This document shows positions 1,343 to 27,726 of a stretch of 64,000 nt of DNA, in pieces. Positions within the stretch are counted from its first letter, which is position 1; every line of letters begins with the position of its first letter. The DNA is taken from the NCBI GenBank assembly GCA_016927475.1, contig JAFGMO010000018.1, positions 13,373 through 77,372 of the forward strand. Reading direction: 5' to 3'. Origin of the DNA: Candidatus Aminicenantes bacterium. GTDB lineage: Bacteria; Acidobacteriota; Aminicenantia; Aminicenantales; Aminicenantaceae. The position numbers and the translations under genes are program-made. The notes beneath the pieces were generated by a model, which ran no database searches, had not been told where the DNA came from, and saw nothing but the letters and a program-made list of their open reading frames with translations.

Positions 1343-1475
1343 CCTCCTTTTTTGGTGTTATTTTAGAAATGGGTCTTATTGAACAATAGATGGTTTTTCC
1401 TGCCGTGAGTTTATCATGGCCCGGCTGGCATGTTCAATAGTCGATAAATTAAAGCGGAGCTTCAGGGGGTCAGGG

Positions 1476-4155: not shown

Positions 4156-4364
4156 TGCCAACTCTTGGATGATTTTGGATATTGTTTGGTTTTTCCCTTT
4201 TTTATAGAAATAAGGTTTGTAATCATGATGACTTCCATAACTCCTTGTTTTGTTTTACGTATAATATATAAAAAATATTCCCTTGTGTTAACCCGGATTG
4301 TTCGTGAAGGTTAAACCAGGGACATATTATCCTGAATAATCCAGGATAAGAACCGAGGTGTACC

Positions 4365-5604: not shown

Positions 5605-6972
5605 GTGAGAAAAAAGAAATTTATTTTTTTTGTCTTTCTATGCGGTATGCTTTCATGGTCTTTTGCCGACGGTTTTCGTTTGTTCGAACATGGAGCCAGA
5701 GCGGCGACTTTGGCCGGAGCTTTTACAGCCAGGGCGGATGACCCGTCCGCGGTCTTTTACAATCCTGCGGGACTTGCCTTTCAAGAAGGATTCCAGATTA
5801 ATCCCAATGTTTCCTACAGTCCCTTCGTCTCAACGGCCTCATCCGAAAATTTTGCTAATCCGGTAAAAAGCTCTTCCCAGCAGATCCGTTCGGACGTTTA
5901 TGCCTCCCTGGGTGTGAAAGGCCGTATTGGATTGGGAATCGGTTTTTTTGTTCCTTATAACACCCAGACGCATTGGCCTGAAACTTGGGCCGGGAAAAGG
6001 CAGAGTATCATTTCCAAGTTCAATACCCACTTCCTTCGTCCGGCCGCGGCATTCAAGATCGGGGAGAGGATTGCTGTGGGAGCAGGATTGGACATCGTTT
6101 TTTCCAGCCTTGAATGGCTGCATACGGTTGTTTTTGATATTCCGGAGCTGGTTTTTTTCGATGAGATGGATATCTTAAGCCATCAGCAGCTCGACACCAA
6201 AAGCCTGAGCTTCACCGCCGGGTTTTTGGTCAAGCCCTTTGATTTTCTTCGCATCGGAGGGCGCTATCAGCATAAAGTCAAGCTGTCTTATAAGGGAGTA
6301 AACTCATTCAACACATACAGCGTGGGCAGTGGATATTTTGTGACCCCTGACGGCAAGTCTTACCGGAAATCCCTGGTTGTTTCAGATTTTTACCGGTCCC
6401 AATCGGTCACTTCCCGTTTAACCCTGCCGTCTGAAGCCATCTTAGGATTCATGTTTATTCCCCATGAAAAGTTCACCCTTCAAGTGGATGTTAACTGGAC
6501 GGAATGGAGTGTTATTGACAAGTGGGAATTCCGGGCCGTGAAATCCGACGAGGAGCTCAACCCGGATTTTCTTTGGGCGTATGGAAATTTTTATGGCCTC
6601 GTTCCCAATTATGGAACCCAGGGATTGGCCCTGAATTGGAAAAATGTCGTTGGCCTTAAAGTGGGGGCCGAATATTATATCAGTCCGGTTATCGCTATTA
6701 GAGGGGGATATGCCTTGCGCCCTCATCCTGGAAACGATGAAAACCTTACGGCCGTTCATCCCTTTGCTGACAGGAACATTCTTTCATTCGGCGGCGGTTA
6801 TTGCGGGCCCATGTATTCTCCGACGGATGGTGCTGTTATCGGCAATCTGTCGTTTGATGTGTTTTTTCAGGCCGCCTTGTCTAAAGGAACGTCGACTTTA
6901 TTGCCCGGCGTTAAGGTCGATTACGATTCGAACAATTATCTTTTCGGCGTGGGTGTAAGCTGGAAAATGTGA
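5605..6972 (+). CDS. Outer-membrane FadL/TodX (OMPP1) family hydrophobic-compound transporter
   Basis: Signal peptide, then N-terminal GARAATLAGAFTARADDPSAVFYNPAGLAF (FadL family signature). Size of 455 aa; beta-strand-like alternating pattern. Confidence 0.65.
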   Translation: MRKKKFIFFVFLCGMLSWSFADGFRLFEHGARAATLAGAFTARADDPSAVFYNPAGLAFQEGFQINPNVSYSPFVSTASSENFANPVKSSSQQIRSDVYASLGVKGRIGLGIGFFVPYNTQTHWPETWAGKRQSIISKFNTHFLRPAAAFKIGERIAVGAGLDIVFSSLEWLHTVVFDIPELVFFDEMDILSHQQLDTKSLSFTAGFLVKPFDFLRIGGRYQHKVKLSYKGVNSFNTYSVGSGYFVTPDGKSYRKSLVVSDFYRSQSVTSRLTLPSEAILGFMFIPHEKFTLQVDVNWTEWSVIDKWEFRAVKSDEELNPDFLWAYGNFYGLVPNYGTQGLALNWKNVVGLKVGAEYYISPVIAIRGGYALRPHPGNDENLTAVHPFADRNILSFGGGYCGPMYSPTDGAVIGNLSFDVFFQAALSKGTSTLLPGVKVDYDSNNYLFGVGVSWKM

Positions 6973-6997
6973 TTTAGGAAAATGTGGGGAGGGGGCC

Positions 6998-8323
6998 ATG
7001 TTTGAAAAAATATTTCACCTCAGTGCCAATAACACAACGGCACGGACAGAAATTTTAGCCGGGCTGACGACTTTCCTGACCATGGCCTACATCATTTTTG
7101 TCAATCCCGCCATCCTGGCTACGGATTTCAATGGGAATCCAACGGGATTGAGTATGGACGCAGCCATGCTGGCCACCTGTCTGGCCGCATTTATCGCCAC
7201 TGTCCTCATGGGGATTTATGCAAATTTTCCCATTGCCCAAGCACCGGGAATGGGGGAAAATTTTTTCTTTGTTACCGTGGTCATGGCCTTGACAGCCAAG
7301 GGGGTAACGGAGAGCTGGAAAGTCGCACTGGGTATCACCTTTATCGCCGGGATTATTTTTCTCATCCTCTCTCTGCTGAAGTTCCGAAAAGCCATTATTG
7401 ATGCCGTCAGTCCAAGTCTTAAAAACAGCATCGCCGTCGGGATCGGTTTTCTCATCGCATTTATCGGGTTTCAGAACGCCGGAGTCATCGTTGATTCCCA
7501 GGGATCTCTTGTTAAATTTCATGCCAATTTTTTTCAGACCGATACCTTAATTTTTATTTTCGGTCTTTTCGTTACGGCCGTCCTTTTTGTCAGGGGAGTC
7601 AAAGGTGCTGTCATCTGGGGTATTTTTCTTTCTACTCTTCTCGCCCTTATCGTGGGGGCCGTAAAGTACCAGGGAATTATCGGATTCCCTCAGGACAATG
7701 CCTTTTTCCGTTTTAATTTGGGCGGAGCCCTGAAGTTGGAGTGGCTTCCTTTCATTCTTGTTTTTCTTTTTATGGATATATTCGATACCATGGGAACCCT
7801 CATTGGAGTGGGCGAGCAGATGGGTATTATGGAAGACAACAAGCTGCCCCGGGCCAACCGGGCTCTCATTTCCGATGCGGTCGGGACGGTCGTCGGTTCC
7901 TGCTCAGGGACGAGCACGGTAACGTCCTTTATAGAGAGTGTGGTCGGTGTCCAGTACGGCGGCCGGACGGGAATGACGAGTCTTGTAACCGGCAGCCTCT
8001 TTTTGGTTGCGCTGTTTTTCAGCCCCCTGGTGGGAATGGTCGGGAGCTATCTTCCCATAACGGCGCCCGCCCTGGTTATTGTGGGAGCGATGATGATACG
8101 CAATGTAAAAAAAATCGACTGGGCGGATTATTCCGAGTCGATCCCGGCTTTCCTGATCATGCTGGGAATACCTTTGAGCTATAACATCCATGATGGGCTG
8201 GCTATAGGATTTATCGCTTATCCGCTGATCAAACTTCTGGGGGGTAGGGGGAAAGAACTCAACTGGCTGCATTATCTTGTAGCGGCGATCTTTATTATGA
8301 GGTATGCGTTGATAAAGGGGTGA
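6998..8323 (+). CDS. NCS2 family purine permease (AzgA/PbuG-like adenine/guanine/hypoxanthine transporter)
   Basis: MFEKIFHLSANNTTARTEILAGLTTFLTMAYIIFVNPAIL is the typical AzgA-family N-terminus. Polytopic; 441 aa. GGAGG-like RBS (ggggaggggg) precedes the ATG. Confidence 0.8.
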   Translation: MFEKIFHLSANNTTARTEILAGLTTFLTMAYIIFVNPAILATDFNGNPTGLSMDAAMLATCLAAFIATVLMGIYANFPIAQAPGMGENFFFVTVVMALTAKGVTESWKVALGITFIAGIIFLILSLLKFRKAIIDAVSPSLKNSIAVGIGFLIAFIGFQNAGVIVDSQGSLVKFHANFFQTDTLIFIFGLFVTAVLFVRGVKGAVIWGIFLSTLLALIVGAVKYQGIIGFPQDNAFFRFNLGGALKLEWLPFILVFLFMDIFDTMGTLIGVGEQMGIMEDNKLPRANRALISDAVGTVVGSCSGTSTVTSFIESVVGVQYGGRTGMTSLVTGSLFLVALFFSPLVGMVGSYLPITAPALVIVGAMMIRNVKKIDWADYSESIPAFLIMLGIPLSYNIHDGLAIGFIAYPLIKLLGGRGKELNWLHYLVAAIFIMRYALIKG

Positions 8324-8425
8324 GAAATTCCGTGTTTTTTCCGCGTCTATCTATTGAAAGGAATTGAACGGAAATTTCCTGCATTTCTGTTTATGCCGAA
8401 TAATAATACTGACGGTGAGGAAGTC

Positions 8426-8938
8426 ATGAACATTTTTTGGTTGGTTTATATTGTGGTATTTATCTGTGGATTGACGTTTTTTTTTGCATATGTTCGGGGT
8501 GTCCGTTCCAGGCTGGAAAAGACCGGCCGTAATAGGATTTTGTGGATAGCTCATTTGATGTTCAGCTTTCCTTTAAATCTTTTTACCTGGAGCGTTTTCG
8601 CCGCCTACTTCGGATACAACCTGTATTCCATTCTTGTCTTGGAGAGATATTATTTTGGCTGCACCGGCTTTTTGCTCATTCTGTTTCTGCTTCTTTTTTT
8701 AGCCCGCTACCACATCGCCGTGGGCGAAAAGGGAATTCTTTTTCATGAAAGTTTTGTTCCTTGGAAAAAAATTGTCAGTGTCAAAAGGAAGGCGGGATTG
8801 GTTAAATGGATAAACGTTACCTGGGAGCAAGGGGTTTCATCCCAAGAGAAAAAATCAAAAAAATTTATTGTTCCGGGAAGATTGTTTCGTTCTCTGAGTC
8901 TTCACATCGAAAAAATGCTTTCTTCTGAAAACAACTAA
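8426..8938 (+). CDS. Hypothetical small membrane protein (3-4 TM) with C-terminal soluble domain
   Basis: Internal Met MNIFWLVYIVVFICGLTFFF with GGTGAGG RBS chosen over the 8354 start; hydrophobic helices; no recognisable family. Confidence 0.4.
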   Translation: MNIFWLVYIVVFICGLTFFFAYVRGVRSRLEKTGRNRILWIAHLMFSFPLNLFTWSVFAAYFGYNLYSILVLERYYFGCTGFLLILFLLLFLARYHIAVGEKGILFHESFVPWKKIVSVKRKAGLVKWINVTWEQGVSSQEKKSKKFIVPGRLFRSLSLHIEKMLSSENN

Positions 8939-9042: not shown

Positions 9043-10164
9043 ATGTTTGAGATCAAAGAAGTTTTGAGTCGAAGAGACCATATGAACTTCATCAAATTCC
9101 CATGGAAGGTCTATCAAAATGATCCGAATTGGGTACCCCCGCTCATTTTTGACATGAAAAATACCTTTAATAAGAATAAAAATCCTTTTTTTGAATTCGG
9201 TGAGGCTGCTTTTTTTCTGGCTTTGAGAGAAGGGAAGACGATCGGTAGAGTTTCCGCTCATATCAACAGCCTGCATAACGAATTCCATAAGACTAAAGAA
9301 GGTTTTTTCGGCTTTTATGAATGTCTCGAGGATGAAGAAGCCTCACAAGCTCTCATGAGGGCAGCTGAAGAATGGTTGAGGGGCCGCGGAATGGAAAAAA
9401 TCATCGGTCCTGAAAATTTTACCATCTATGATGAAATCGGTTTCCAGGTCGATGGCTTTGATGAAGACCCGCCGACTCCCGTTATCATGACCACATATAA
9501 TCCTCTCTATTATCTGGATCAGATGGCGAAAGCAGGCTATCAGAAAGAGATCGACTGGCTGGCTTTTAAGGTCGATGAGACCGTTAGCATCAAGGATACG
9601 TATTTTAAAATAAGCGAACGGATAAAAAGAAAAGAAGGGCTTGTTTTCCGTCCTATAGATATCAAAAATATCAAATCAGAAGTGGCCAAGATAAAAAGGA
9701 TAGTTCACGGTGCCTGGGCGGAAAATTGGGGACATTTTCCTTATTCTGACGGGCAGTTTGACAAGGTCGCTGAAGCCCTGAAGTTAATCGTTGATCCCCG
9801 GACGGCTTTCATCGTAGAAAAAGCAGGGGAAGCCATTGCCGTCGCCGTAACGCTTCCGGATATCAATCCGTCCATCCAAAAAATGAACGGACGGCTTTTT
9901 CCCTTTGGCTGGTGGTATTTTTTAATGGCGAAAAAAAAGGCGGTTGGTCTCAGAACGTTTTTATTCGGTGTGCTCAAAGAATACCGCAACAGGGGTATCG
10001 ACCTTGTTCTTGTTATGGATACCATTTTGAATGCCAAAAAAGCGGGGTACCGGTGGTCGGAATGTTCCATCGTTGTGGAAAACAACCATAAAATGATTGA
10101 TCCCATCCTCAAATGGGGCGGACGTCTTTATAAAAAGTACCGTCTGTTTGGAAAAAAATTGTAA
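9043..10164 (+). CDS. Large (~373 aa) GNAT-fold-like acyltransferase; candidate N-acyltransferase of the adjacent lipid pathway (bacterial ceramide-synthase-like?)
   Basis: Start at MFEIKEV (GGGAG RBS). No TM. Region QALMRAAEEWLRGRGMEKIIGPENFT resembles a GNAT acyl-CoA-binding core. Assignment is weak; neighbourhood-based. Confidence 0.3.
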   Translation: MFEIKEVLSRRDHMNFIKFPWKVYQNDPNWVPPLIFDMKNTFNKNKNPFFEFGEAAFFLALREGKTIGRVSAHINSLHNEFHKTKEGFFGFYECLEDEEASQALMRAAEEWLRGRGMEKIIGPENFTIYDEIGFQVDGFDEDPPTPVIMTTYNPLYYLDQMAKAGYQKEIDWLAFKVDETVSIKDTYFKISERIKRKEGLVFRPIDIKNIKSEVAKIKRIVHGAWAENWGHFPYSDGQFDKVAEALKLIVDPRTAFIVEKAGEAIAVAVTLPDINPSIQKMNGRLFPFGWWYFLMAKKKAVGLRTFLFGVLKEYRNRGIDLVLVMDTILNAKKAGYRWSECSIVVENNHKMIDPILKWGGRLYKKYRLFGKKL

Positions 10165-10310
10165 AATTGGTTATACGACAGAACGTTAATCCCCAAGTCC
10201 GGCCTTGAGCGGAAAAGAAACTCTCGGATCTTTAAGAAACATTTCAGATTCATGGCCCTAACTGATATAATACCCCCTTAATAATTTTTTTTTCACGTTG
10301 AGAGCAAACC

Positions 10311-11594
10311 ATGAAAAGAAGAGTTGTAATAACAGGAATGGATACGATTAATCCTCTTGGAGATACCCTTGAAGAGTATTATAGCAACTTAATTAAGGGA
10401 AAATCAGGGATCAAAAGATGGACCTCTCTTGACCTCAGCAAGGTCGACTGCAAAATCGGCGGTGACCTGGGAGACTATGACTTTAAATCCCGGCTTGAAC
10501 AATTGAGGGGCCAAATAGAGGAAAACCTTCATAAAAAGCTTCGTAAGCTTTTCAGGAACATGACGTTTTCCAACAAAGCCGCTACGTTAACGGCTATCCA
10601 TGCTTTTCTGGACGCCGGTTTGTTTGGTGTCGATATCGATCCGGACAGATTCGGGGTGGTTGTGGGCGGCCACAATTTTAACTCCAACTATGTCCTCAAA
10701 AACATCCACCAGTTTGAAGAAGAGCCGGCTTATATCGAACCCCTGTTTGGTGTCGAGGCCCTCGATCCGAACATTCCGGCCACCATCTCTGAAGTTCTGG
10801 GAGCGCAGGGGCCGACTTTCACCATGGGAGCGGCTTGCTCCAGTGGAAATATTGCTTTGAGAGAGGGTTTCAGGAACATAATCAGCGGCGAATGTGATGT
10901 TATGATCGTGTCGGGAGCGATTTTCGACATGACTTCCTCGGATATCCATGCTATGGCCTATCTTGACACCTTGGCGATTGACGAAAAATACTACGACATG
11001 CCGGAAAAAGCTTCCCGTCCTTTTGACGCCGGACGAAGTGGTTTTGTTCCTTCCCACGGGGCGGGAACGATTATTATCGAGAGTCTCGATTTTGCTCAAG
11101 AAAGGAATGCATCCATTAGGGCCGAAGTGTTGGGGGTTGCAGCTAATGCCAATGCCAACCATCTTCCGGTCCCTTCCGCGGAAACACAGGCACGCTTGAT
11201 ACAAAACCTGCTGCGAAATACTGGAGTGCGGCCCGAAGAAGTGGATTACGTAAACTGTCATGCCACGAGCACGCCTGTCGGCGATACCCTGGAGATCAAG
11301 GCCATCAAACAAGCTTTCGGCAAACATGCTTATGCGTTGAAGCTGAACGCTCCCAAGTCCATGCTGGGGCATGTCTGCTGGTCGGCGCCCATCGTGGAAT
11401 CCATAGGGGGAATTCTTCAGATGGAACATGGGATGCTCCATCCTTCGATTAATATCGACCGGCTGGACCCTGAAGTTGACCTGGATGTTTGCAAAGACGG
11501 GCCGGTCAAGCACCAAATCCGGATGATGCTCAAAAACTCTTTCGGATTCGGGGGGCTGAACTGCTGTTCGCTCATTAAAAGATATGAGGGATAA
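10311..11594 (+). CDS. Beta-ketoacyl synthase (KAS I/II-like thiolase-fold condensing enzyme); candidate KS of a beta-branching cassette
   Basis: RVVITGMDTINPLG N-terminus; active-site Cys in GAACSSGN; His in CHATSTPVGD and MLGHVCW; C-terminal NSFGFGGLN. Confidence 0.75.
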   Translation: MKRRVVITGMDTINPLGDTLEEYYSNLIKGKSGIKRWTSLDLSKVDCKIGGDLGDYDFKSRLEQLRGQIEENLHKKLRKLFRNMTFSNKAATLTAIHAFLDAGLFGVDIDPDRFGVVVGGHNFNSNYVLKNIHQFEEEPAYIEPLFGVEALDPNIPATISEVLGAQGPTFTMGAACSSGNIALREGFRNIISGECDVMIVSGAIFDMTSSDIHAMAYLDTLAIDEKYYDMPEKASRPFDAGRSGFVPSHGAGTIIIESLDFAQERNASIRAEVLGVAANANANHLPVPSAETQARLIQNLLRNTGVRPEEVDYVNCHATSTPVGDTLEIKAIKQAFGKHAYALKLNAPKSMLGHVCWSAPIVESIGGILQMEHGMLHPSINIDRLDPEVDLDVCKDGPVKHQIRMMLKNSFGFGGLNCCSLIKRYEG

Positions 11595-11597
11595 ACC

Positions 11598-12338
11598 ATG
11601 AATGTATTTATAACGGGGGGCTCGCGAGGAATCGGGAGAGCCGTTGTGTTGAAGTTTGTCAAGGAAGGATGGGGCTGTGCTTTCACCTATGCCAGGGATA
11701 AGGAGGCTGCCGAAGAAACCGTAAAGCTGGCTTCCGGGTTAAACGAAAAAGCCGATATCCGTTTCTACCGGCTTGATGTAAAGGAGCCGGAAAGGATTGA
11801 AAGTCTTGCCGACAAGGTCATCGAGGATTACGAAAACATACGGGCGGTGGTCAACAATGCGGCTGTTGTCCGGAATAACGCTGCGGTTTTGATGAGCAAT
11901 GAGGAATGGGAGGAAGTCCTCACAACCAACCTCTCGGGTCCATTTTACGTCATCCGCAGTTTTTTAATGCATTTTGTTTCCAACAAAGCCGGTCGTATCA
12001 TCAATATATCCTCTTTAGCCCAAGACGGCTGTAGCGGGCAGGTTAATTACGCGGCCAGCAAAGCGGGCCTCATCGGTTTGACCCGGACGCTGGCCAAAGA
12101 ATACGGGCCCAAAGGGATCACCTCCAATGTGGTTACGGTCGGTTATGTTCCCACTCGGATGACCGAAGAAAACCTGGCGGCAAACCTCCATGAATTCTGG
12201 ATGAAACACTGCCCGCTGAAAAGAATAGGATCGGCCGAAGATATTGCCAATCTTGTTTATTATCTTTGTTCCGACCAGGGGGGATTCATCAACGGAGAAG
12301 TCATTAGAGTTTCCGGAGGATTGACTTATGCTCCCTGA
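11598..12338 (+). CDS. SDR-family 3-oxoacyl-ACP reductase (FabG-like)
   Basis: TGGSRGIGRAV Rossmann motif; NNAAV; catalytic YAASKAG; 246 aa. Translationally coupled (4-bp gap) to the upstream KS. Confidence 0.75.
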   Translation: MNVFITGGSRGIGRAVVLKFVKEGWGCAFTYARDKEAAEETVKLASGLNEKADIRFYRLDVKEPERIESLADKVIEDYENIRAVVNNAAVVRNNAAVLMSNEEWEEVLTTNLSGPFYVIRSFLMHFVSNKAGRIINISSLAQDGCSGQVNYAASKAGLIGLTRTLAKEYGPKGITSNVVTVGYVPTRMTEENLAANLHEFWMKHCPLKRIGSAEDIANLVYYLCSDQGGFINGEVIRVSGGLTYAP

Positions 12339-12353
12339 AAGAGAGAAGGTTTT

Positions 12354-13580
12354 ATGAAAAAGATAGGAATCGAAAAGATAAACCTGTATGGATGTTCCCT
12401 CTATATGAACCAGTACGACCTTGCTCTGGCCAGGGGGAGAGATCCGGAACGTGTCCTCAAATCGTATCTAATCGAATCGAGGTCTCTGAATCCTCCCTAT
12501 GAAGATACGGTAACCATGGCAGCCAATGCGGCCAAACCGGTTCTAACCGATCAAGATAAGCGGGATATCGGTCTTCTCATTGTCGGTACCGAAGGGGGAG
12601 TCGATTTTGGAAAACCCATCTCGACCAACCTCCACCGTGCTTTGGGGCTTCCGCCGCGGGTGCGGAATTACGAGACAAAACATGCCTGCTATAGTGCCGT
12701 AGCCGCCCTGGATACGGCCCTCAACTGGATCGCCGCCGGTCTCAACCGAGGGAAAAAGGCGCTGGTTATCGCCACGGATTTCAGCCGCAAACATTTCCGC
12801 AAAGACCACGAGTTTGTCCTCGGCGGGGTGGCAGCCGCCGTCCTGGTCAGCGATTCCCCAAGAATCATTTCCTATGAACTGGAAAAAAAGGGATTCTGGA
12901 CCACGGATGTCTACGATACCTTCAGGCCTTCGGCCTTCGACGAGCTGGGGAACAACCAGATCAGCCTATACAGCTATATGGATGCCCTGGAAGGCTCTTA
13001 TTTACACTATGTGGAAAATGTGGGAGATGTGGATTTCGACACTTATTTTAAGAAAAATGTTTACCACATGCCCTTTCCCGGCATGTCGTTTCAGGCCCAC
13101 CGTCTGCTGTGCAACCTAGCCAAGCCCCGGAAAAAATCGGAGGTTGTCGCAAGTTTTAATGAAAAGAACCGTCCCGCTCTGCGCTATTCGCAAAAAGTCG
13201 GCTCAACCTACAGCGGAAGCAATTTTGTCGGATTATGCGGGGTTATTATGGCTTCCGATGACCTTCATCCGGGTGACAGGATCGGTTTTTTCTCCTATGG
13301 ATCCGGGGCTATAGGGGAGTTTTACAGCGGGATCGTTTGCGAAGAAGCAAGGAAAATCATCGAGAATATGGCCCTAGACGACCATCTGGACGCGCGGCGT
13401 AAGGTAACGGTCGAGGAATATGAACAGATTGAGAATTTACGGGAAACATACATCGAGAATCCCAATTTTGTTTCCGACCTTTCCCTCCTTGATAACTGGT
13501 TTGACAGTTACTACAAGGGAAAAGGGCTTCTCTATCTGAAAGAGGTGAAGGATTTTCGAAGGGTCTATGATTGGAGCTGA
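12354..13580 (+). CDS. HMG-CoA synthase family protein (PksG/MvaS-like; beta-branch-installing HMGS)
   Basis: N-terminal IGIEKINLYG...; catalytic Cys in ETKHACYSAVAAL; 408 aa, typical bacterial HMGS length. Confidence 0.75.
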   Translation: MKKIGIEKINLYGCSLYMNQYDLALARGRDPERVLKSYLIESRSLNPPYEDTVTMAANAAKPVLTDQDKRDIGLLIVGTEGGVDFGKPISTNLHRALGLPPRVRNYETKHACYSAVAALDTALNWIAAGLNRGKKALVIATDFSRKHFRKDHEFVLGGVAAAVLVSDSPRIISYELEKKGFWTTDVYDTFRPSAFDELGNNQISLYSYMDALEGSYLHYVENVGDVDFDTYFKKNVYHMPFPGMSFQAHRLLCNLAKPRKKSEVVASFNEKNRPALRYSQKVGSTYSGSNFVGLCGVIMASDDLHPGDRIGFFSYGSGAIGEFYSGIVCEEARKIIENMALDDHLDARRKVTVEEYEQIENLRETYIENPNFVSDLSLLDNWFDSYYKGKGLLYLKEVKDFRRVYDWS

Positions 13581-13583
13581 TAC

Positions 13584-14387
13584 ATGGCTTTTGTGAAGAC
13601 CCGGATTGATTCTTCCCTGGCTCTATTAACCTTGACAGATGGTCGTGAGGGAAACAGGTTGAACCTTGAGCGCCTCGAGGAACTGTCATCTTCTATGGAT
13701 GCGGCTTTCGATGATAAAAACGTGAGGGTGGTTCTTCTGCGTTCGAACGGTCCTGCATTCTGTCTGGGGATGGACCTGGAGCGTCTTATGGCAAACCAGG
13801 CAGAAAAACATCTTGAGGAGGCGGTTTCCCTGTATTCGTCTCTCCTGATCGGCATCATCGAAGCGCCGAAACCGGTTATTGCACTCGTTCAGGGAGACGT
13901 TAAAGCGGGAGGAGTGGGGCTGGCGGCGGCATGTGATATCGTCGTAACCGCAGATGACGCCTCTTTTGAACTTCCGGAAGTTTTCCTGGGGCTTATTCCG
14001 GCCAACGTCCTTCCTTTCCTTCTGCTGCTGCGCATGACGCCTTCTAAAGCCCGCTATGTCACCTTAACCGGAAAAAAACTTCAGGCTGAGGAAGCCCGCT
14101 TATGTGGGTTGGCGGACGAGGTTTTCCCCAGGCAGGATCTGGAAAAAGAGCTTAAAAGCATTATCAAACGGTTGATGCGGGCTTCACCCCAGGCTCTGGC
14201 CCGGATCAAGCGGTTTACAGGCGAAATGATCTCAGAAATGCTGCGGAAAAAATGCGGTGAGGCGCGGAAAGAACTTATAGAGCTGGTTAATGACGAGAAG
14301 GTAGCGGCGGCCATCAAATCTTTTCTGAATGGCGGAACACCGCCCTGGTTTGTAAAATTCAGGCCGGAAAAATCCCTGGTCGAGTGA
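13584..14387 (+). CDS. Enoyl-CoA hydratase/isomerase (crotonase) family, ECH1-like (PksH-like dehydratase)
   Basis: Crotonase-fold motifs: VVLLRSNGPAFCLGMDL, ALVQGDVKAGGVGLAAACDIV. Immediately follows HMGS. Confidence 0.7.
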   Translation: MAFVKTRIDSSLALLTLTDGREGNRLNLERLEELSSSMDAAFDDKNVRVVLLRSNGPAFCLGMDLERLMANQAEKHLEEAVSLYSSLLIGIIEAPKPVIALVQGDVKAGGVGLAAACDIVVTADDASFELPEVFLGLIPANVLPFLLLLRMTPSKARYVTLTGKKLQAEEARLCGLADEVFPRQDLEKELKSIIKRLMRASPQALARIKRFTGEMISEMLRKKCGEARKELIELVNDEKVAAAIKSFLNGGTPPWFVKFRPEKSLVE

Positions 14388-15160
14388 GGTGTCCCATGGG
14401 GGAAAAAATAATCACGCAGGTGGAGAAAAACGGTGTGGCCACCCTGCGCATGAATGATGCGGCAACCAACAACACTTTTACCGATGAGTTTATTTCAGGT
14501 TTTATTCAATGCCTGGAGAGAATCGAAGAAGCCGAACCGAAGGTTTTGATCCTTCAAGGTTTGCCGCAGGTCTTTTGCGCCGGAGCGGAAAAACGAAACC
14601 TTCTCGATTTATGCGAAGGCCGTATTCTTGTTAAGGATCTGCTCATTTCGGAGAAACTTGTTCAGGTTCCCTTTCCAGTGATTGCCGCCATGGAGGGACA
14701 TGCCGTAGGCGGGGGATTCGTCATGGCCATGTGCTGCGATATCGTCCTGGCGGCCCGTGAGAGCCGCTACGGCGTGGTCTTCATGTCCCTTGGTTTTACT
14801 CCGGGTATGGGCTGTACGACCCTCCTTCCAGAGCTTGTAGGTCCTTTCCTGGCCAATGAGATGATGTATACCGGCAAACGTTTCAAGGGGAGGGAACTGG
14901 CTGAAAGATCGACCAACATCAACTACATTCTTCCCAGAAAAGAAATCCTTCCTAAAGCGAAAGAGATCGCGCTGAGAATCAGTGAAATAAACCGAAAATC
15001 CCTCACTATTTTGAAAAACACACTGGCTGCCAGAAAGAAAAAACTGCTGATTGAAGCCCGTCTTCAAGAAGACCTCATGCACAGGATAAGCTTTGCTTAC
15101 CCTGAAACAAAAAAGGCGGTGGAGGAATTATATGCCGGGCAGGAAGAGGAGGAAAAATGA
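14384..15160 (+). CDS. Enoyl-CoA hydratase/isomerase family, ECH2-like (PksI-like decarboxylase)
   Basis: ILQGLPQVFCAGAE, AAMEGHAVGGGFVMAMCCDIVLAA; overlaps the previous gene by 4 bp (operonic coupling). Confidence 0.7.
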   Translation: MRCPMGEKIITQVEKNGVATLRMNDAATNNTFTDEFISGFIQCLERIEEAEPKVLILQGLPQVFCAGAEKRNLLDLCEGRILVKDLLISEKLVQVPFPVIAAMEGHAVGGGFVMAMCCDIVLAARESRYGVVFMSLGFTPGMGCTTLLPELVGPFLANEMMYTGKRFKGRELAERSTNINYILPRKEILPKAKEIALRISEINRKSLTILKNTLAARKKKLLIEARLQEDLMHRISFAYPETKKAVEELYAGQEEEEK

Positions 15161-15984
15161 TCCGGATCGACATGTCGGGCAAGTCGGTGTTGATAACCGG
15201 AGGCACAAAAGGCATTGGATTGGCTGCAGCCCTCGTGTTCGGCCGGGCGGGAGCCAGGACATATCTCACCTATAAATGGGGATCGGACGATTTTACTCCT
15301 CTTTACGATCTTTTCAAAAAAAACAATGCGGCTCCTCCTTTACTTTTTCAGGCCGATGTGGCCATTCCTGAGGATACGGATGCGCTTTTACAGGATGTGA
15401 AAAAGCATGAAAAACGAATCGATATTTTTATAAGCAATGTCGGTGTAGCCCAGAGAGCCCGTTCCTTGAGGGATTACCGGAAACGCTCTCTTTATCGAAC
15501 GCTCGATTACAGCACATGGCCGCTTATTGAGTACACGAAAAAAATCCATGAGGTATTTGATTGTTATCCCCGGCATATCGTCGGTATCTCAAGCGACGGA
15601 CCCGACCATTTTTATTCCGGTTATGACTATGTCGCCGCTTCCAAGGCGCTTTTGGAATTTTTCGCCAAGTACCTGTCTGTTCATCTTTTTGAAGAAGGAA
15701 GCCGTGTCAATATTATCCGTTTCGGACCCGTGAACACGGAATCTTTCTCCCTGGTATTCGGAAAAGAGTTCTTCGATTTCCTCAAAGAACAGGGGGTTCC
15801 CGAGGAGATGTTTATAACGACCGAAAACTGCGGCGAGACCGTTTTTGCCCTATGCAGCGGACTCCTGGATGCTGTAAACGGCCAGATTATTACCGCCGAT
15901 AAGGGCATGAGTTTCCGGGATAACATGATGATGCGTTATTTGAAAGAAAAAGAAAAAAAGAAAAAAATGGAGCGGAATGGGTAA
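15157..15984 (+). CDS. SDR-family reductase, enoyl-ACP reductase-like (FabI/FabL-type Y-x6-K) or ketosphinganine-reductase candidate
   Basis: LITGGTKGIGLAAAL; Y-x6-K spacing in YDYVAASKA as in FabI-type reductases; overlaps the upstream gene by 4 bp. Confidence 0.55.
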   Translation: MIRIDMSGKSVLITGGTKGIGLAAALVFGRAGARTYLTYKWGSDDFTPLYDLFKKNNAAPPLLFQADVAIPEDTDALLQDVKKHEKRIDIFISNVGVAQRARSLRDYRKRSLYRTLDYSTWPLIEYTKKIHEVFDCYPRHIVGISSDGPDHFYSGYDYVAASKALLEFFAKYLSVHLFEEGSRVNIIRFGPVNTESFSLVFGKEFFDFLKEQGVPEEMFITTENCGETVFALCSGLLDAVNGQIITADKGMSFRDNMMMRYLKEKEKKKKMERNG

Positions 15985-16161
15985 ACCCGGAAACCGCCTT
16001 AAGTGTTGATTTATAATCACAATTCAGAGTGCGAACACCCGCTTTTTTAAATAAAAATGTGAATCATCGATATTCCTATTTGCACTTTTTCGCCTAATAT
16101 AATATTATCCCTCTGAAGAGACTCGATTTGTGTCTGTATTATCCTGTGACGGAGGAGATGA

Positions 16162-16404
16162 ATGACTAGAGAGGAAGTTTTCAGCATCATCAAAAAAAAT
16201 ATCTTGGACAATCTTGAAGATATCGAGGAGGACGAGATTGATGGAGGAAAATCGATGAAAGATTATGGGGCGGACAGCCTCGATATTATCGAGGTGGTTT
16301 CCTGCTCCATGCGGGAACTCAAGATAAAAATCCCGAGAGCTGAACTTTCAGATATCAAAACGATAGATGAGTTGACGGATAAATTCATGGAATATATTAA
16401 ATAA
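16162..16404 (+). CDS. acpP: Acyl carrier protein
   Basis: 80 aa; DYGADSLDIIEVV with the phosphopantetheine-attachment Ser in DSL; acidic helix-rich. Confidence 0.8.
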   Translation: MTREEVFSIIKKNILDNLEDIEEDEIDGGKSMKDYGADSLDIIEVVSCSMRELKIKIPRAELSDIKTIDELTDKFMEYIK

Positions 16405-16492
16405 TCCTCTTCCGTGAGTTTTTTACGGATTGAGGGTGAAGAAAGAACCGGTGCGGAGCCTCATTGAGTAGAGGTTAAGTCAGGTTTATCAA

Positions 16493-17755
16493 ATGGATGA
16501 TCCCCTCAAATTCAGCTTGGCGGACTTTTTTTATAACGACAACTCAAGTGTTCTGAAGCCTCCGTCCGATTTTGTCGAATGGATGAGCGATCCCCGCATA
16601 CAAGCTGGATTCAGTTTTTTCGAGCAACAGCTTTTAAAAGCTCCCACCGCGGAAACCGAAATACTGAGCAATCTGGATAACAAGAAACGGCGGGTTATCA
16701 ACCTGACATCCTATAATTATCTTGGTTTATCGTCTCATCCCGAAGTCATTCAAGCCGCCATAGATGGATTGCGAAAATACGGACTGGGAGCTTCAGGTGC
16801 TCCTTTGCTTTCCGGAACCTTTGATCTTCATGTTCAGTTCGCCCGCATGCTGGCCGAATTCAAACAAAAAGAGGACTGCATCCTTTTCTCGAGCGGATTA
16901 GGGGGAAATCTGGGAATCATGCAGGGGATCCTGCGCAAGGGGGATCTTTTGCTCCTGGATGAGAAGGGACATAAGAGCCTTCTGGACGGGGGGAAATTGT
17001 CCGGAGCTAAGGTCCGGATGTTTGAGCACAACAGCGTGGAAGACCTGGCCCGCCTTCTTGATGAAAATAAGGATAAACGCATTCTTGTCGCCGTAGAAGG
17101 GGTTTATTCCATGGATGGAGACCTGGTCAAGCTTCCCGAGATCGTCGAGCTCTGCGAACCTTACGATAATGTGGAACTTCTCATTGATGAAGCCCACTCC
17201 ACCCTGATGTTCGGAGAGAACGGCAGGGGAGTGGCCGAGCATTTCGGCCTGGAAGATAAGATCGGAATTTCCTTCGGCACGCTGTCCAAGTCTTTCGGCG
17301 GGGTCGGGGGCTTTGTCTGTTCCAATGCCGGAATCATCCGTTATCTTAAGGGATACGCTTCCCCGTATAATTTTTCCTGTGCTCCCTCTCCTCCTATTGT
17401 GGCCGGTTTGATAAAAGCCCTGGAGGTAGCCACCAGAGATTCTTCGCTTCGCGATAAGCTATGGGAAAACACGGCTTATTTTAAGAAAAACCTGGATGCG
17501 TTGAACCTGAATATGGGGGCGACCGAATCTCAGGTCATTCCCATTATCATCGGATCTTCCGGGGAACTCCTCTTTGAGATGGCGGCAGAGATTCAGAAGC
17601 GGGGGCTTTTTCTTCAACCGGTCGATTTTCCGGCCGTCCCCGCCCATTCCCGGCGTTTCCGCATCTCCGTCTCTTCTCAGCTTACGAGGGAAAACATCGA
17701 CGAAGCCTGTAATATCATCGAGGATGTCATTGCCCGACGTCTTCGGAAAGTTTAG
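16493..17755 (+). CDS. PLP-dependent alpha-oxoamine synthase (BioF/Kbl/serine-palmitoyltransferase family); candidate Spt
   Basis: NLTSYNYLGLSSHPEVIQAA, SGLGGNLG, PLP-Lys region GTLSKSFGGVGGFV; 420 aa. Directly downstream of the ACP, as in bacterial sphingolipid loci. Confidence 0.8.
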   Translation: MDDPLKFSLADFFYNDNSSVLKPPSDFVEWMSDPRIQAGFSFFEQQLLKAPTAETEILSNLDNKKRRVINLTSYNYLGLSSHPEVIQAAIDGLRKYGLGASGAPLLSGTFDLHVQFARMLAEFKQKEDCILFSSGLGGNLGIMQGILRKGDLLLLDEKGHKSLLDGGKLSGAKVRMFEHNSVEDLARLLDENKDKRILVAVEGVYSMDGDLVKLPEIVELCEPYDNVELLIDEAHSTLMFGENGRGVAEHFGLEDKIGISFGTLSKSFGGVGGFVCSNAGIIRYLKGYASPYNFSCAPSPPIVAGLIKALEVATRDSSLRDKLWENTAYFKKNLDALNLNMGATESQVIPIIIGSSGELLFEMAAEIQKRGLFLQPVDFPAVPAHSRRFRISVSSQLTRENIDEACNIIEDVIARRLRKV

Positions 17756-17761
17756 AGATTA

Positions 17762-18310
17762 TTGGAACCTTTTTCCGACCTTCTTCGTACATTCCGGAAA
17801 AAACCGCTTATTCCTCTGGATCATATAGAGGCGAAATCATCCTTCCATAAACTGGACTGCGGACGCGAGGATATCAAAAAAATTATTCCCCACAGGGAGC
17901 CTTTTTTGCTCATCGATAAACTTCTGGGATTGGACCTGACTCCGGGGGAGGAGGTTATCCTGGGGGTTCGCTTCATTCCGGCTGAAGATCCCGTTTTTAA
18001 AGGTCATTTTCCGGAAGCTCCCCTTTATCCGGGGTCCCTTCAGCTTGAGATGTCCGGGCAACTGGGATTGTGTCTGACGTATTTTGTCGTCAACAAAAGG
18101 AAAACAATAGCCGAAAACGCCGAACCTTTAGCTGTTAGGGCGACAAAGGTTTTGGGTGCTCTTTTTTTGGAACCGGTTCTTCCGGACAGTGAGGTCCTGC
18201 TTCTTTCCAAACGTCTGGACTATGACGGTTATTTTGGAAGGGTGATAAGCCAGGTTTTACGAGAAGGTAAGGTCTGCAGCGTTTCCATTGCCGAAGTTCT
18301 TTTCCTTTAA
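17762..18310 (+). CDS. FabZ/FabA-like hotdog-fold 3-hydroxyacyl-ACP dehydratase
   Basis: HREPFLLIDKLL...VFKGHFPEAPLYPGSLQLEMSGQLG matches the FabZ HFPxxPxxPG...E active-site region. Confidence 0.65.
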   Translation: MEPFSDLLRTFRKKPLIPLDHIEAKSSFHKLDCGREDIKKIIPHREPFLLIDKLLGLDLTPGEEVILGVRFIPAEDPVFKGHFPEAPLYPGSLQLEMSGQLGLCLTYFVVNKRKTIAENAEPLAVRATKVLGALFLEPVLPDSEVLLLSKRLDYDGYFGRVISQVLREGKVCSVSIAEVLFL

Positions 18311-19322: not shown

Positions 19323-20597
19323 TCAGCCTGTGAATCGGGAAATGATAAGGCTGGCGTTTTGTCCACCAAATCCAAAGCTGTTGGATAAAACATTGTTCAC
19401 AGGGAATTCAACCGGCGCCTTGGAAGGGATGTTGAGGTCGATTTCGGGGTCCATTTCGAAAAGATTGATGGAAGGATGGACAATTCCTTTCTGAATGGCC
19501 AGGATTGAGGCAATGGCTTCTGTTCCGCTGGCCGCCCCGATCAGGTGTCCAATCATGGATTTTGTGCTGTGGACATAAATTTGGTCCGTACGTTCTCCAA
19601 AAACTTGCCGGATAGCCCGGCTTTCCGCCACGTCTCCCAGGATGGTCGAAGTGCCGTGGGCATTAATGAGTTCGATGTCTCCCTTGTTGAGCTGAGCGTT
19701 TTGAAGGGCGAGGGCCATCGCCGCTGCGGCGCCTTTTCCTTCCGGATCGGGAGCGACAAGGTCATAGGCATCACAGGACAATCCGAATCCTTTGAGTTCG
19801 GCATAGATGTTGGCGCCTCTTTTTTTTGCGAATTCCAGTTCTTCCAAACAGAGGACTCCTGCTCCCTCGCTGAGAACAAAACCGTCCCGGTCCTTATCGA
19901 AGGGCCGGCTGGCCGTTTCCGGGCTGTCGTTTCTCCGGGAAAGGGCATAGATAATGGAGAATCCGGAGTAGCCGGCTTCATTGAGGACTCCTTCCGTTCC
20001 ACCGCATATCATAACATCGGCTGCGCCTGCTTTGATCAGCACCATGGCGCTTATAATGGCGTGATTGCTTGTGGCGCATGCGGAATTAACGGAAAAATTC
20101 GGTCCCTGAAAATGGAATTCTTTGGCGAAGAAAGCCGGCGGCATGTTGGGTATAACGCCCACGGCATAATAAGGAGAGACGGATTCCATTCCTTGTTTTT
20201 GTATCCTTTTGCACATTTCGAAATGGAGTCCATTTCCTGCATCCCCAGTGCCGATGACGGCTCCGAACCGAAAGGGATTTTTTTCAACCAGGGAAGGCTC
20301 GAGCCCTGCGTCCTTATAAGCCTGGACCGCGGCGACATGGCCGAAAACAATGAACCTGTCGACGCGTTTGAGAAGTTTTTTTGGGAAAAAGTCACCGATA
20401 TTATCCGGAAAGTCGACCTCTCCTCCAATCCTGACATTAAACTCGCTTAAATCCGTATGTTGGGCCGTTCTGACACCTGATTTTCCGGCGGTCAGGTTTT
20501 CCCAAAATTCCTGGACATTGTTTCCTATGGGATTGATCGTTCCCATGCCGGTGACGACAACCCTACGTTCACCGAAATTATTTTTTGTGGATCTCAT
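19323..20597 (-). CDS. fabF: Beta-ketoacyl-ACP synthase II
   Basis: RVVVTGMGTINPIGNNVQEFWENLTAGKSGV; catalytic triad regions SACATSNHAI, NAHGTSTILGD, HSTKSMIGHLIGAAS; C-terminal NSFGFGGQNASL. Confidence 0.85.
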   Translation of the reverse strand: MRSTKNNFGERRVVVTGMGTINPIGNNVQEFWENLTAGKSGVRTAQHTDLSEFNVRIGGEVDFPDNIGDFFPKKLLKRVDRFIVFGHVAAVQAYKDAGLEPSLVEKNPFRFGAVIGTGDAGNGLHFEMCKRIQKQGMESVSPYYAVGVIPNMPPAFFAKEFHFQGPNFSVNSACATSNHAIISAMVLIKAGAADVMICGGTEGVLNEAGYSGFSIIYALSRRNDSPETASRPFDKDRDGFVLSEGAGVLCLEELEFAKKRGANIYAELKGFGLSCDAYDLVAPDPEGKGAAAAMALALQNAQLNKGDIELINAHGTSTILGDVAESRAIRQVFGERTDQIYVHSTKSMIGHLIGAASGTEAIASILAIQKGIVHPSINLFEMDPEIDLNIPSKAPVEFPVNNVLSNSFGFGGQNASLIISRFTG

Positions 20598-20739: not shown

Positions 20740-21165
20740 TCAGATGAAAATTTCCTTGAAAACAGGATTGGGCCCCATTTTTTTGATGCTTTCGGTGAAT
20801 TCGTTGGTGACTTTTTCGTAACGGGGTGCTTCCGAAGCTGAAACCCACCACAACCCTATGCGTTTTTCATCAAGGCCCAGGGTTTTTAAAATGGTGTCGA
20901 GCATTACATATCTCCGCCTCGTGCTGTAATTGCCTTTTTGGTAATGGCAGTCTCCCGGGTGACAGCCCATCATCATGACGCCGTCAGCACCCTTTAAGTA
21001 GGTTCTCAAAACAAAAAGGGGATCGATTCTACCCGAACACATGACTCTTATGATCCGGATGGAAGGAGGGATGTGCATCCGGGCCGTACCGGCGAGGTCC
21101 GCTCCTGTGTAGGAACACCAATTGCATAAAAAACCGATGATTGTCGGTGTGAAATCTTTATCCAT
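20740..21165 (-). CDS. mvhD: MvhD/FlpD-like hydrogenase-delta-type iron-sulfur subunit (copy 1)
   Basis: IIGFLCNWCSYTGADLAG...VMCSGRIDP...GCHPGDCHY is the MvhD family Cys pattern. Confidence 0.8.
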   Translation of the reverse strand: MDKDFTPTIIGFLCNWCSYTGADLAGTARMHIPPSIRIIRVMCSGRIDPLFVLRTYLKGADGVMMMGCHPGDCHYQKGNYSTRRRYVMLDTILKTLGLDEKRIGLWWVSASEAPRYEKVTNEFTESIKKMGPNPVFKEIFI

Positions 21166-21192
21166 TATAATCGTCCTTTTTTGAAAGAGACT

Positions 21193-22305: not shown

Positions 22306-22308
22306 TTT

Positions 22309-23547: not shown

Positions 23548-23585
23548 TCTTTTCTCCTTTTCTGCTGACTCGTAACTTTTGCATA

Positions 23586-25268: not shown

Positions 25269-25301
25269 TTTATTTTATCCTCTTCATGATATCGTCCTCT
25301 T

Positions 25302-26576: not shown

Positions 26577-26594
26577 TTTTTGTTTTTCCCTTCC

Positions 26595-27372: not shown

Positions 27373-27726
27373 TCAGAATGAAAACGTTATCGTTGCGTCC
27401 TTGATTTCATTAATAAACGTGGTGGCACCGATAATTTCCACGCCTTCTCTGAAATCTTCTTTTTTCAGGTCTTTAGCTTCCAGGGCCAATTCACAGACAT
27501 AAATCTTGCCTCCCAGAGTACAAAGGCCTTCGTAGAGTTCCAGCAAGTTCGGCAGACCTTTTCCTTCCATTTTTTCGATCACGCCTTTAACCATAGCAGG
27601 TGCTCCTCCGGGACAGAAAAAAATGTGGACTTCGTCTCCTGATGCAGCGGCTGATGAGCCGAGAATAAAAGGCGGAAAAACATTTTTTCCTTCTGTACCG
27701 TTAACCGTAATCGCTACTTTGGACAT
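27373..27726 (-). CDS. DsrE/DsrF(DsrE2)-like sulfur-relay protein
   Basis: 117 aa; MSKVAITVNG...HIFFCPGGAP...KIYVCELAL, the DsrE-family fold pattern with conserved Cys. Immediately upstream of tusA in the same operon. Confidence 0.6.
   Translation of the reverse strand: MSKVAITVNGTEGKNVFPPFILGSSAAASGDEVHIFFCPGGAPAMVKGVIEKMEGKGLPNLLELYEGLCTLGGKIYVCELALEAKDLKKEDFREGVEIIGATTFINEIKDATITFSF

Follow-up and report, generated by a model that had tools for sequence, protein, structure and literature searches.

A conserved operon joining a polyketide-type beta-branching cassette to an alpha-oxoamine synthase in Candidatus Aminicenantes

Bacterial lipids are known to acquire methyl branches from branched-chain amino-acid primers or through S-adenosylmethionine-dependent methylation, and Myxococcus xanthus has an alternative isovaleryl-coenzyme A (CoA) pathway that uses MvaS, LiuC, AibA/B and AibC. 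Beta-branching in polyketide synthase (PKS) systems is associated with 3-hydroxy-3-methylglutaryl (HMG) synthase (HMGS) cassettes, such as AcpK-PksF-PksG-PksH-PksI of bacillaene and CurB-CurF of curacin, and the classic cassettes use a ketosynthase (KS) termed KS0, which is condensation-inactive and serves only to decarboxylate malonyl-acyl carrier protein (ACP) (PMC10006238). Two further systems bear on the present work: the bacterial ceramide pathway of Spt, AcpR, AasR, CerS (bCerS, CC_1154, YghO) and CerR (CC_1164, 'epi'), and the type II fatty acid synthase (FAS) of FabD, FabF, FabG, FabZ, FabI and AcpP. Here, we describe an operon that brings together genes resembling each of these systems, located on contig JAFGMO010000018.1 of a Candidatus Aminicenantes metagenome-assembled genome (MAG). 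The 64,000-nt stretch that was analyzed (13,373-77,372 of the forward strand) is referred to as the window, and all coordinates below are window positions.

The operon comprises nine genes for a KS, a ketoreductase (KR), an HMGS, two crotonase-fold enzymes (ECH1 and ECH2), an enoyl reductase (ER), an ACP, an alpha-oxoamine synthase (AOS) and a dehydratase (DH), and it is preceded by a gene for a GNAT-type N-acyltransferase. What was observed directly is its gene content, with intact motifs and assigned families, a synteny that is conserved, and homology to ceramide genes that have been validated genetically; this gene-level evidence is strong and broad. With modest confidence, we favor a reading of the operon as a self-contained type II synthase whose own ACP would carry a growing methyl-branched acyl chain, to be released as an amino lipid and then N-acylated. 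The lipid predicted in this way is undescribed.

Gene content and enzyme families of the operon

Ten co-directional genes on the + strand, those listed in a preliminary description of the window made from the letters alone, fill positions 9043-18310, each with intact catalytic motifs. That description also proposed translational coupling, which is supported by the short or overlapping spacing of the genes: from the KS to the ER, gaps of 3, 15 and 3 nt are followed by two 4-nt overlaps, and the AOS and DH genes are only 6 nt apart. Larger gaps separate the ER from the ACP (177 nt, 15985-16161), the ACP from the AOS (88 nt) and the GNAT from the KS (146 nt, 10165-10310). The 177- and 146-nt stretches are unusually long breaks in such a tightly packed operon and lack an Rfam match; an Rfam scan of the whole window likewise returned no match, and thus no riboswitch that might hint at a ligand.

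The enzymes of the putative beta-branching step are the most readily assigned. The HMGS (12354-13580, +; Pfam HMG_CoA_synt N- and C-terminal domains) is, by sequence, an ACP-dependent enzyme of the PksG/CurD type. Its best PDB scores, obtained over residues 1-407, are to CurD (247 bits), PksG (229 bits) and VirC (225 bits), while MvaS-type enzymes score 201-175 bits in alignments that end near residue 360. The full-length alignment with CurD, PksG and VirC includes a C-terminal subdomain described as unique to PKS-integrated HMGS enzymes (PMC11522927). Residues E80, C112 and H238 are invariant across the family alignment, the MvaS model TIGR01835 is not reached (268 bits against a cut-off of 360), and the window contains no mevalonate genes, so a mevalonate-pathway assignment, raised in the preliminary description as one of three outcomes that would overturn its reading, did not materialize, and nor did the other two. 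Acetoacetyl borne on the donor ACP is a substrate for CurD, and both ACPs have been proposed to share one docking site (PMC11522927), which makes it plausible that one ACP could serve both HMGS half-reactions.

ECH1 (13584-14387, +; ECH_1 157 bits) is predicted to be a crotonase-fold dehydratase acting on the HMG-thioester. Its best NCBIfam match is PRK07112 (PksH-type), under cut-off, and its PDB matches are to methylglutaconyl/isohexenylglutaconyl-type hydratases (94-104 bits) and to PksH (86 bits). The Asp of its GMD motif corresponds to PksH Asp68 in a motif comparison with VFCFGAD, which was read from the D68A primer in PMC7501309. ECH2 (14384-15160, +), a putative crotonase-fold decarboxylase, exceeds the cut-off of the PksI-type model PRK07110 (265.6 against 215 bits), matches PksI (144 bits) and CurF ECH2 (135 bits) in the PDB well above generic crotonases (at most 87 bits), and conserves the His aligned with the catalytic His230 of PksI.

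The remaining enzymes suggest chain building. The KS (10311-11594, +; Pfam ketoacyl-synt N- and C-terminal domains, KS I/II type) scores 330 bits against PRK07103 (PksF-type), its best NCBIfam model, versus 321 bits against fabF, both under cut-off, and its best PDB matches are FabF enzymes at about 240 bits. Its Cys-His-His triad is aligned and intact (GAACSS, NCHATST, LGHVC), which argues for a condensation-competent enzyme. A second, elongating ketosynthase, FabF (19323-20597, -), narrowly exceeds the TIGR03150 equivalog cut-off (496.9 against 493.75 bits); rather than diverging from the operon, as the preliminary description stated, it converges on it, with a metallophosphoesterase gene in between. 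The KR (11598-12338, +; adh_short_C2 193 bits) is a FabG-type 3-ketoacyl-ACP reductase with the classical S...YAASK motif that scores 235 bits against TIGR01830, under the cut-off of 298. The gene at 15157-15984 (+; Pfam adh_short_C2) encodes a short-chain dehydrogenase/reductase (SDR) whose best NCBIfam matches are FabL and FabI, all under cut-off, and enoyl-ACP reductases make up most of its 24 PDB matches, including the top three (52-68 bits). Because these best matches are accompanied by a Y-x6-K motif (YDYVAASK) that aligns with that of Thermus FabI, we read the SDR as a FabI/FabL-type enoyl-ACP reductase and not as a ketosphinganine or ceramide reductase. The DH (17762-18310, +; FabA domain) appears to be a FabZ/ApeI-like 3-hydroxyacyl-ACP dehydratase with the motif GHFPEAPLYPGSLQLE, FabZ model scores of 59-63 bits (under cut-off) and a weak ApeI-like match.

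The 80-aa ACP (16162-16404, +; PP-binding domain) looks to be a dedicated carrier of the donor type found in HMGS cassettes. Its best NCBIfam model is PRK07117 (56 bits, under the cut-off of 79), it is 48-50% identical by tblastn to the ACPs of four cyanobacterial HMGS loci (L069, L070, L081 and L082; L numbers are our labels for loci retrieved from other sources), and it falls in one similarity cluster with three of these (L069, L070 and L081). It also lacks the Trp that usually flags acceptor ACPs. Thus, the classic beta-branching cassette named in the preliminary description is borne out for the HMGS, ECH1, ECH2 and ACP, but not for the KS, which keeps its Cys-His-His triad and is no KS0.

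The AOS (16493-17755, +; class-II aminotransferase fold, Aminotran_1_2 175 bits) has Sphingobacterium serine palmitoyltransferase (SpSPT) as its best PDB match (270 bits) and is 30-40% identical to Spt enzymes. When aligned to SpSPT via E. coli Spt, it retains equivalents of the pyridoxal phosphate-binding Lys, His159, Asp231/His234 and Arg390 (H160, IDEAHS, GTLSKS and RFRIS). A loop differs in a clade-specific manner, with N100-G-S-R103-M-L-N106 of SpSPT replaced by S101-G-A-P104-L-L-S107 in the window, and the form G-A/S-P-L/M-L-S-G is retained in both arrangements of the cluster described below. To place the enzyme, a neighbor-joining tree (381 columns, 100 bootstraps) was determined with E. 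coli BL21 Spt, SpSPT, two further Spt-like proteins, Kbl from E. coli and from locus L086, a Thermus AOS (ThAOS) and E. coli BioF as references. All cassette-linked AOS sequences form one clade (100/100) outside BioF and Kbl, the Spt clade and the Kbl plus ThAOS clade are recovered in 86 and 85 bootstraps, and E. coli BioF is the outgroup. The cassette-linked enzymes thus constitute a distinct clade, outside the curated Spt, BioF and Kbl families as judged from sequence.

Conserved gene order and neighboring genes

To retrieve relatives of the operon, genomes were scanned with an HMGS alignment and the window proteins were then searched by tblastn; this yielded 65 sources whose HMGS is at least 53% identical. 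The nine-gene core is complete in 44 of them and always runs KS-KR-HMGS-ECH1-ECH2-ER-ACP-AOS-DH, an arrangement so constant that it lies far beyond chance. Its carriers include Aminicenantes, FCPU426, Latescibacterota, unclassified bacteria and many Spirochaetota, among them Brevinematales and the spirochete symbiont of Olavius algarvensis, and a cut-off Firestonebacteria contig (L017) holds the first part of the cluster. Identity to the window proteins is lowest for ECH1 (31-51%) and highest for the AOS, the most conserved gene of the set (65-81%; 65-83% for orthologs in other phyla). A rearranged form, AOS-(FabD)-DH-KS-KR-HMGS-ECH1-ECH2-ER-ER-ACP, is complete in seven loci and is carried by Myxococcota (Polyangia and Nannocystaceae, including the cultured Enhygromyxa salina SWB005), Phycisphaeraceae (Phycisphaerae) and Nitrospinae. 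No PKS megasynthase is encoded within 10 kb of about 75 related loci of either arrangement or in the window, in agreement with the preliminary description; a 2309-aa open reading frame (ORF) upstream of the HMGS in L064, considered as a candidate, is a GLUG/cadherin surface protein.

Accessory genes recur beside the core. Among the 44 complete loci, FabF is found in 38, either downstream on the opposite strand or directly upstream on the same strand, an Sfp-type phosphopantetheinyl transferase (PPTase) in 29, a GNAT in 17, FabD in 15 and an epimerase-family reductase in eight, and an LPG_synthase_TM membrane protein accompanies the cassette in some loci. The frequencies of FabF, PPTase and FabD fit a stand-alone synthase. 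Other neighbors are more sporadic. In Spirochaetes bacterium GWF1_51_8 (L002 12065-13324), and likewise in a second assembly (L003), unrelated DUF6978 and DUF1828 genes separate ECH1 from ECH2, the cassette being intact in all other respects. Genes for both acetolactate-synthase subunits, large and small (IlvBN), occur just upstream of GNAT-FabD-KS in several Spirochaetales loci (L020, L025-L028 and L031, about 460-4700), and a thiamine pyrophosphate (TPP) enzyme gene adjoins the Enhygromyxa cluster (L083 24-1580); these IlvBN and TPP enzyme neighbors are probably coincidental, though they touch on branched-chain metabolism.

The GNAT gene (9043-10164, +; 373 aa, ORF start 8977) would link the window to ceramide formation. 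Its product has only a marginal Pfam match (Acetyltransf_1) and no match in NCBIfam or PDB sequence searches. An AlphaFold (AF2) model with a predicted local distance difference test score (pLDDT) of 90 adopts a tandem-GNAT fold, and its top Foldseek matches in the PDB are small-molecule N-acyltransferases (glucosamine N-acetyltransferase, MAB_4324, MshD and a clavulanate tandem GNAT). The E. coli BL21 yghO gene is listed as the ortholog of Caulobacter CC_1154, an N-acyltransferase required for dihydroceramide formation (PMC9386255). It lies in the order yghO, acyl-AMP ligase, epimerase, ACP, spt, lptG, lptF. The window GNAT aligns end to end with YghO (31% identity over 381 columns, E 4e-63) and has in common with it an N-terminal FPxxxYxxDPNWxPPL motif, so the relationship to bacterial ceramide synthases suggested in the preliminary description is upheld. 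By sequence it is a member of the bCerS/YghO family, and N-acylation of a (3-keto) long-chain base is predicted for it.

Ceramide-pathway genes also accompany the cassette elsewhere. GNAT homologs adjoin five of the seven complete rearranged loci in addition to the 17 noted above, and all cassette-adjacent GNATs outside the window align full-length with YghO (27-37% identity, E 1e-46 to 1e-76). The epimerase-family reductases, present beside the eight same-order cores and three rearranged loci (two of the seven complete ones), are homologous to E. coli 'epi' (CerR), for example in L031 (26% identity, E 8e-34), and AasR-like acyl-AMP ligases occur in two Polyangia loci. The GNAT family further adjoins an Spt-like AOS and an epimerase in unrelated genomes (L087/88 and L089), where SPT-CFB is the best AOS model at 550-589 bits. 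Another member, in a Marinimicrobia MAG (L090 8001-11344), is followed first by a CerR-like epimerase gene and then by one for a PAP2_3 protein, and an inositol monophosphatase gene lies close by. PAP2_3 is the family of sphingomyelin and inositol phosphorylceramide (IPC) synthases, and these genes may together add the head group of a phospho-sphingolipid; Marinimicrobia have been proposed as sphingolipid producers in the Black Sea. Locus L086 (10001-14160) also holds a bCerS-family GNAT (53% identical to that of the window) beside an AOS and an epimerase-family gene, and was considered as a ceramide triad; this candidate was rejected, as the AOS is a genuine Kbl (615 bits against a cut-off of 460) that groups with E. 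coli Kbl (100/100). L086 represents either a chance kbl-tdh neighborhood or a sign that short aminoketones are further substrates of the GNAT family.

Outside the operon, the window encodes no biotin, mevalonate, PKS or further sphingolipid genes, and its remainder consists of Hdr/Mvh-type redox genes, transporters, proteases and a sulfatase. Just 5' of the GNAT (5605-8938, +) are genes for a FadL/TodX-family outer-membrane channel, a xanthine/uracil-family permease and a 194-aa protein of no assigned family, and the metallophosphoesterase gene lies downstream (18329-19270/19393, -). None of these four is kept beside the cassette in other species, and they were dropped as parts of the cluster, though a porin that admits hydrophobic compounds is possibly of interest so near a lipid cluster. 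Further downstream (20740-27020, -), two FlpD/MvhD-like copies (20740-21165 and 26595-27020), each followed by genes for a ferredoxin/FrhB-like protein and an HdrA-like flavoprotein, suggest that an electron-bifurcating module of the heterodisulfide-reductase type has been duplicated in tandem. A DsrE-like gene is found at 27373-27726.

A proposed pathway and alternative explanations

We infer the chemical steps of the pathway, along with the carrier, chain length, amino acid and branch position, from the genes described above. Malonyl units would be loaded on the ACP, possibly by FabD, which is present in many related loci and absent from the window. The Cys-containing KS and FabF would generate acetyl-ACP and beta-ketoacyl-ACP from malonyl-ACP, and at one beta-keto stage the HMGS would add an acetyl-derived C2 unit. 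Dehydration by ECH1 and decarboxylation by ECH2 would then give a 3-methyl-2-enoyl-ACP, which the FabI-type ER would saturate, with the KR, DH and ER handling ordinary elongation cycles. The AOS could join the finished branched acyl-ACP by decarboxylative condensation to serine, alanine or glycine as the small amino acid, forming a methyl-branched 3-keto long-chain base, and the bCerS-family GNAT would N-acylate this base. A CerR-type reductase, encoded beside the cassette in other species and not in the window, would reduce the 3-keto group, and the end product may be a methyl-branched (dihydro)ceramide-like membrane lipid.

The position of the branch could follow either of two schemes. An iso-terminal branch could arise through acetoacetyl-ACP and isovaleryl-ACP, a scheme favored by the ancestral HMGS substrate, the resemblance of the HMGS to CurD and the stand-alone HMGS-ECH1-ECH2 trio of L064. 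Branching in the last cycle could instead place the methyl group near the head group, which is favored by the divergent AOS loop and by the Polyangia acyl-AMP ligases, as these would be able to load a preformed fatty acid. In a further and quite speculative version, which we hold to be a long shot, the KS pair and the KR and HMGS routes would alternate, so that a beta-methyl group is set in every second cycle and an isoprenoid-like chain (a methyl on every fourth carbon) is built from malonyl alone and released as an amino lipid. The sole specific basis for this version is the pair of KS genes, together with the two ER paralogs of the rearranged form; if true, it would be a non-mevalonate, non-MEP (methylerythritol phosphate) route to phytanyl-like chains in anaerobic bacteria.

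Several observations weigh against the ceramide-like reading as a whole. First, the AOS falls under every curated NCBIfam cut-off, with 343 bits against 535 for the Kbl-related model, 319 against 460 for Kbl, 317 against 640 for SPT-CFB, 279 against 500 for SPT-beta and 230 against 670 for SPT-alpha. A genuine Kbl scores 360 bits on SPT-CFB, above the 317 of the window AOS, so the SPT-CFB score is non-discriminating. The cassette clade joins Spt in 59 and Kbl in 22 of 100 bootstraps, and an 'Spt-like' label is thus weakly grounded, in a weak tree node and in gene context. Second, mutations at human SPT1 Cys133, the counterpart of SpSPT Asn100, admit alanine (PMC6148460), and because the loop at this position is altered in the window enzyme, its use of serine is uncertain. 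Third, the ACP resembles HMGS donor ACPs and not the sphingolipid AcpR, for which the E. coli protein gave no tblastn match in any source searched. The combination of AOS, ACP and SDR reductase, taken in the preliminary description as a sphingolipid signature, therefore stands insofar as the AOS adjoins an ACP, but the SDR reads as an enoyl reductase, the ACP is not AcpR-like and the AOS lies under the SPT cut-offs. Fourth, the window encodes no CerR-like protein, FabD or PPTase, and a tblastn search of it with CerR (CC_1164/'epi') gave no match. Finally, with the exceptions of Enhygromyxa salina, an isolate, and the genome of the Olavius symbiont, the carriers are MAGs, and two Spirochaetia have partial clusters, L058 7950-12801 (KS-KR-HMGS-ECH1-ECH2) and L064 9986-12772 (HMGS-ECH1-ECH2), with no ER, ACP, AOS or DH within 10 kb. 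These may mean that the cassette is a separable module, or they may be decaying copies.

Independently of these points, the GNAT may be a chance neighbor in the window that serves another pathway, such as a canonical Spt pathway encoded elsewhere, in which case it would not N-acylate the operon product. The family is very large (4854 matches at E<=1e-10), members of the window subfamily that are 50-74% identical sit away from the cassette on three contigs (L084-L086), and three other Aminicenantes loci (L004, L005 and L007) have no neighboring GNAT upstream. The GNATs adjacent to Spirochaetales cassettes belong to another subfamily, 35% identical to the window protein and 47-54% to others. A sigma-70-like promoter-like site at 10243-10271, itself weak evidence, separates the GNAT from the KS within the 146-nt gap; promoter and terminator scans did not rise above shuffled expectation. 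Against a chance association, the gene is co-directional with the operon and close to it, and the family adjoins the cassette in three gene arrangements and with at least two subfamilies, which is hard to explain without a functional link. We therefore consider a chance neighborhood possible, if unlikely; the link of the GNAT to the operon is probable in this genome and weaker here than in other taxa.

An improbable alternative is that the product is no membrane lipid, but a short- or medium-chain branched alpha-aminoketone acting as a diffusible signal (CAI-1/LAI-1-like) or as a precursor of pyrazines or other small metabolites. AOS enzymes also make signals, such as the products of CqsA, a donor-type ACP with HMGS, ECH1 and ECH2 would suffice for a C5 unit (the trio stands alone in L064), and identities of 55-80% across phyla suggest horizontal spread of a portable trait. 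However, the CqsA-type model gives the window AOS one of its lowest listed scores (186 bits), the conserved KR, DH, ER and FabF imply repeated elongation, and the cassette is accompanied by bCerS-family and CerR-like genes and in some loci by LPG_synthase_TM or an AasR-like ligase, while no regulator or receptor gene is found among the conserved neighbors.

Somewhat more doubtful is the proposal that the cassette chiefly makes an isovaleryl-ACP primer for bulk iso-fatty acids, independently of leucine, with the amino-lipid branch being secondary. The HMGS together with a dehydratase, a decarboxylase and an enoyl reductase would mirror, on an ACP, the Myxococcus alternative isovaleryl-CoA route. 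CurD, the top PDB match of the HMGS, acts on acetoacetyl-ACP, and partial clusters without an AOS exist (L058, L064 and L074). This proposal is difficult to reconcile with the presence of the AOS, the most conserved gene, in 44 of 44 complete loci, and a dedicated ACP, PPTase and AOS would be superfluous for feeding a housekeeping synthase.

The last two alternatives return to conventional pathways. Action of the HMGS cassette in trans on a modular PKS encoded elsewhere is very improbable: all five classic cassette functions best match the Bacillus pksX set in NCBIfam (PRK07103, PRK07110, PRK07112 and PRK07117), but no PKS is encoded in the window or within 10 kb of about 75 related loci, the giant ORF of L064 being that of a surface protein, the KS is predicted to condense, unlike KS0, and the core always brings its own KR, DH, ER and ACP and a release enzyme. 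An unusual pimeloyl-ACP/biotin route, in which the AOS would be BioF, is scarcely credible, since, although BioF/Kbl-family models score about like SPT models (326-343 bits) and some source annotations name the homologs 8-amino-7-oxononanoate synthase, the AOS stays under the BioF cut-off (TIGR00858, 326 against 426 bits) in a separate clade that does not join E. coli BioF, the most distant reference (28% identity), bioA, bioB and bioD are absent from the window and related loci, and HMGS/ECH chemistry leads to a methyl branch and not to pimelate.

Significance and comparison with known systems

In our literature search, no paper turned up that links an HMGS cassette with an AOS, with sphingolipid genes or with type II FAS, in line with the earlier suggestion that such a lipid is undescribed in this kind of organism. 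Genes of the HMGS-AOS type also go unmentioned in a Black Sea study in which the range of Spt-like genes was widened to 38 phyla, and a preprint on the Bacteroides fragilis AOS Lgs was set aside as a precedent, that protein being an unrelated, lone CqsA-like enzyme. If the ceramide-like reading is correct, this cassette would be, within the literature searched, the first of the HMGS beta-branching type to operate away from a polyketide assembly line; it would form part of a fatty-acid-type synthase supplying a sphingolipid-type pathway, and would add a third route for methyl branches in bacterial lipids. A new clade of AOS enzymes would be defined as well, and enzymologists would gain a minimal beta-branching system that has one ACP and a KS that is catalytically complete. 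Aminicenantes, Spirochaetota, FCPU426 and Latescibacterota, in which the cluster is widespread, are uncultured anaerobes dominant in sediments and groundwater, and marine Myxococcota carry it too; because of this distribution its product could be an as yet unassigned environmental lipid and a taxon-specific biomarker. The cultured carrier Enhygromyxa salina SWB005 makes the predicted lipid testable.

Judged from its genes, the locus would work like a fusion of a type II FAS, a PKS beta-branching cassette and the bacterial Spt/bCerS/CerR pathway. With the HMGS cassettes of bacillaene and curacin it shares an ACP-dependent HMGS with the C-terminal subdomain, an ECH1, an ECH2 with its His and a stand-alone ACP of the donor type, and the best NCBIfam matches of its KS, ECH1, ECH2 and ACP are models of the pksX cassette. 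Unlike those cassettes, it has neither a modular PKS nor tandem acceptor ACPs, relying on a single ACP without the Trp flag, no second ACP being encoded in the window or within 10 kb in related loci; its KS should be able to condense, and a full set of KR, DH, ER and FabF is joined to it together with an AOS as the release enzyme.

The likeness to the bacterial ceramide pathway lies in an AOS beside a dedicated ACP and in a YghO-family N-acyltransferase, and extends in related clusters to CerR-like reductases and, in two of them, to AasR-like ligases. The differences are that the window AOS belongs to a clade apart from Spt and has a changed loop at SpSPT Asn100, that the window ACP is unrelated to AcpR, that the window lacks CerR and AasR, and that in the proposed model the acyl chain is made by cluster-encoded enzymes instead of being captured as a free fatty acid.

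If the HMGS uses acetoacetyl, the logic would match that generally known for the M. xanthus isovaleryl-CoA pathway, from an HMG-thioester through 3-methylglutaconyl and 3-methylcrotonyl to isovaleryl. The window system differs in the use of ACP and not CoA, of a crotonase-fold ECH2 and not a CoA-transferase-like decarboxylase, and of a FabI-type reductase, and M. xanthus MvaS (PDB 5hwo) is a weaker match to its HMGS (201 bits) than CurD (247 bits) or PksG (229 bits). Finally, the operon resembles type II FAS in its discrete KS, KR, DH, ER and ACP with canonical motifs and in a FabF that passes the equivalog cut-off, but its own KS, KR, DH, ER and ACP fall under the housekeeping equivalog cut-offs and are tied to an HMGS cassette and a pyridoxal phosphate-dependent release step.

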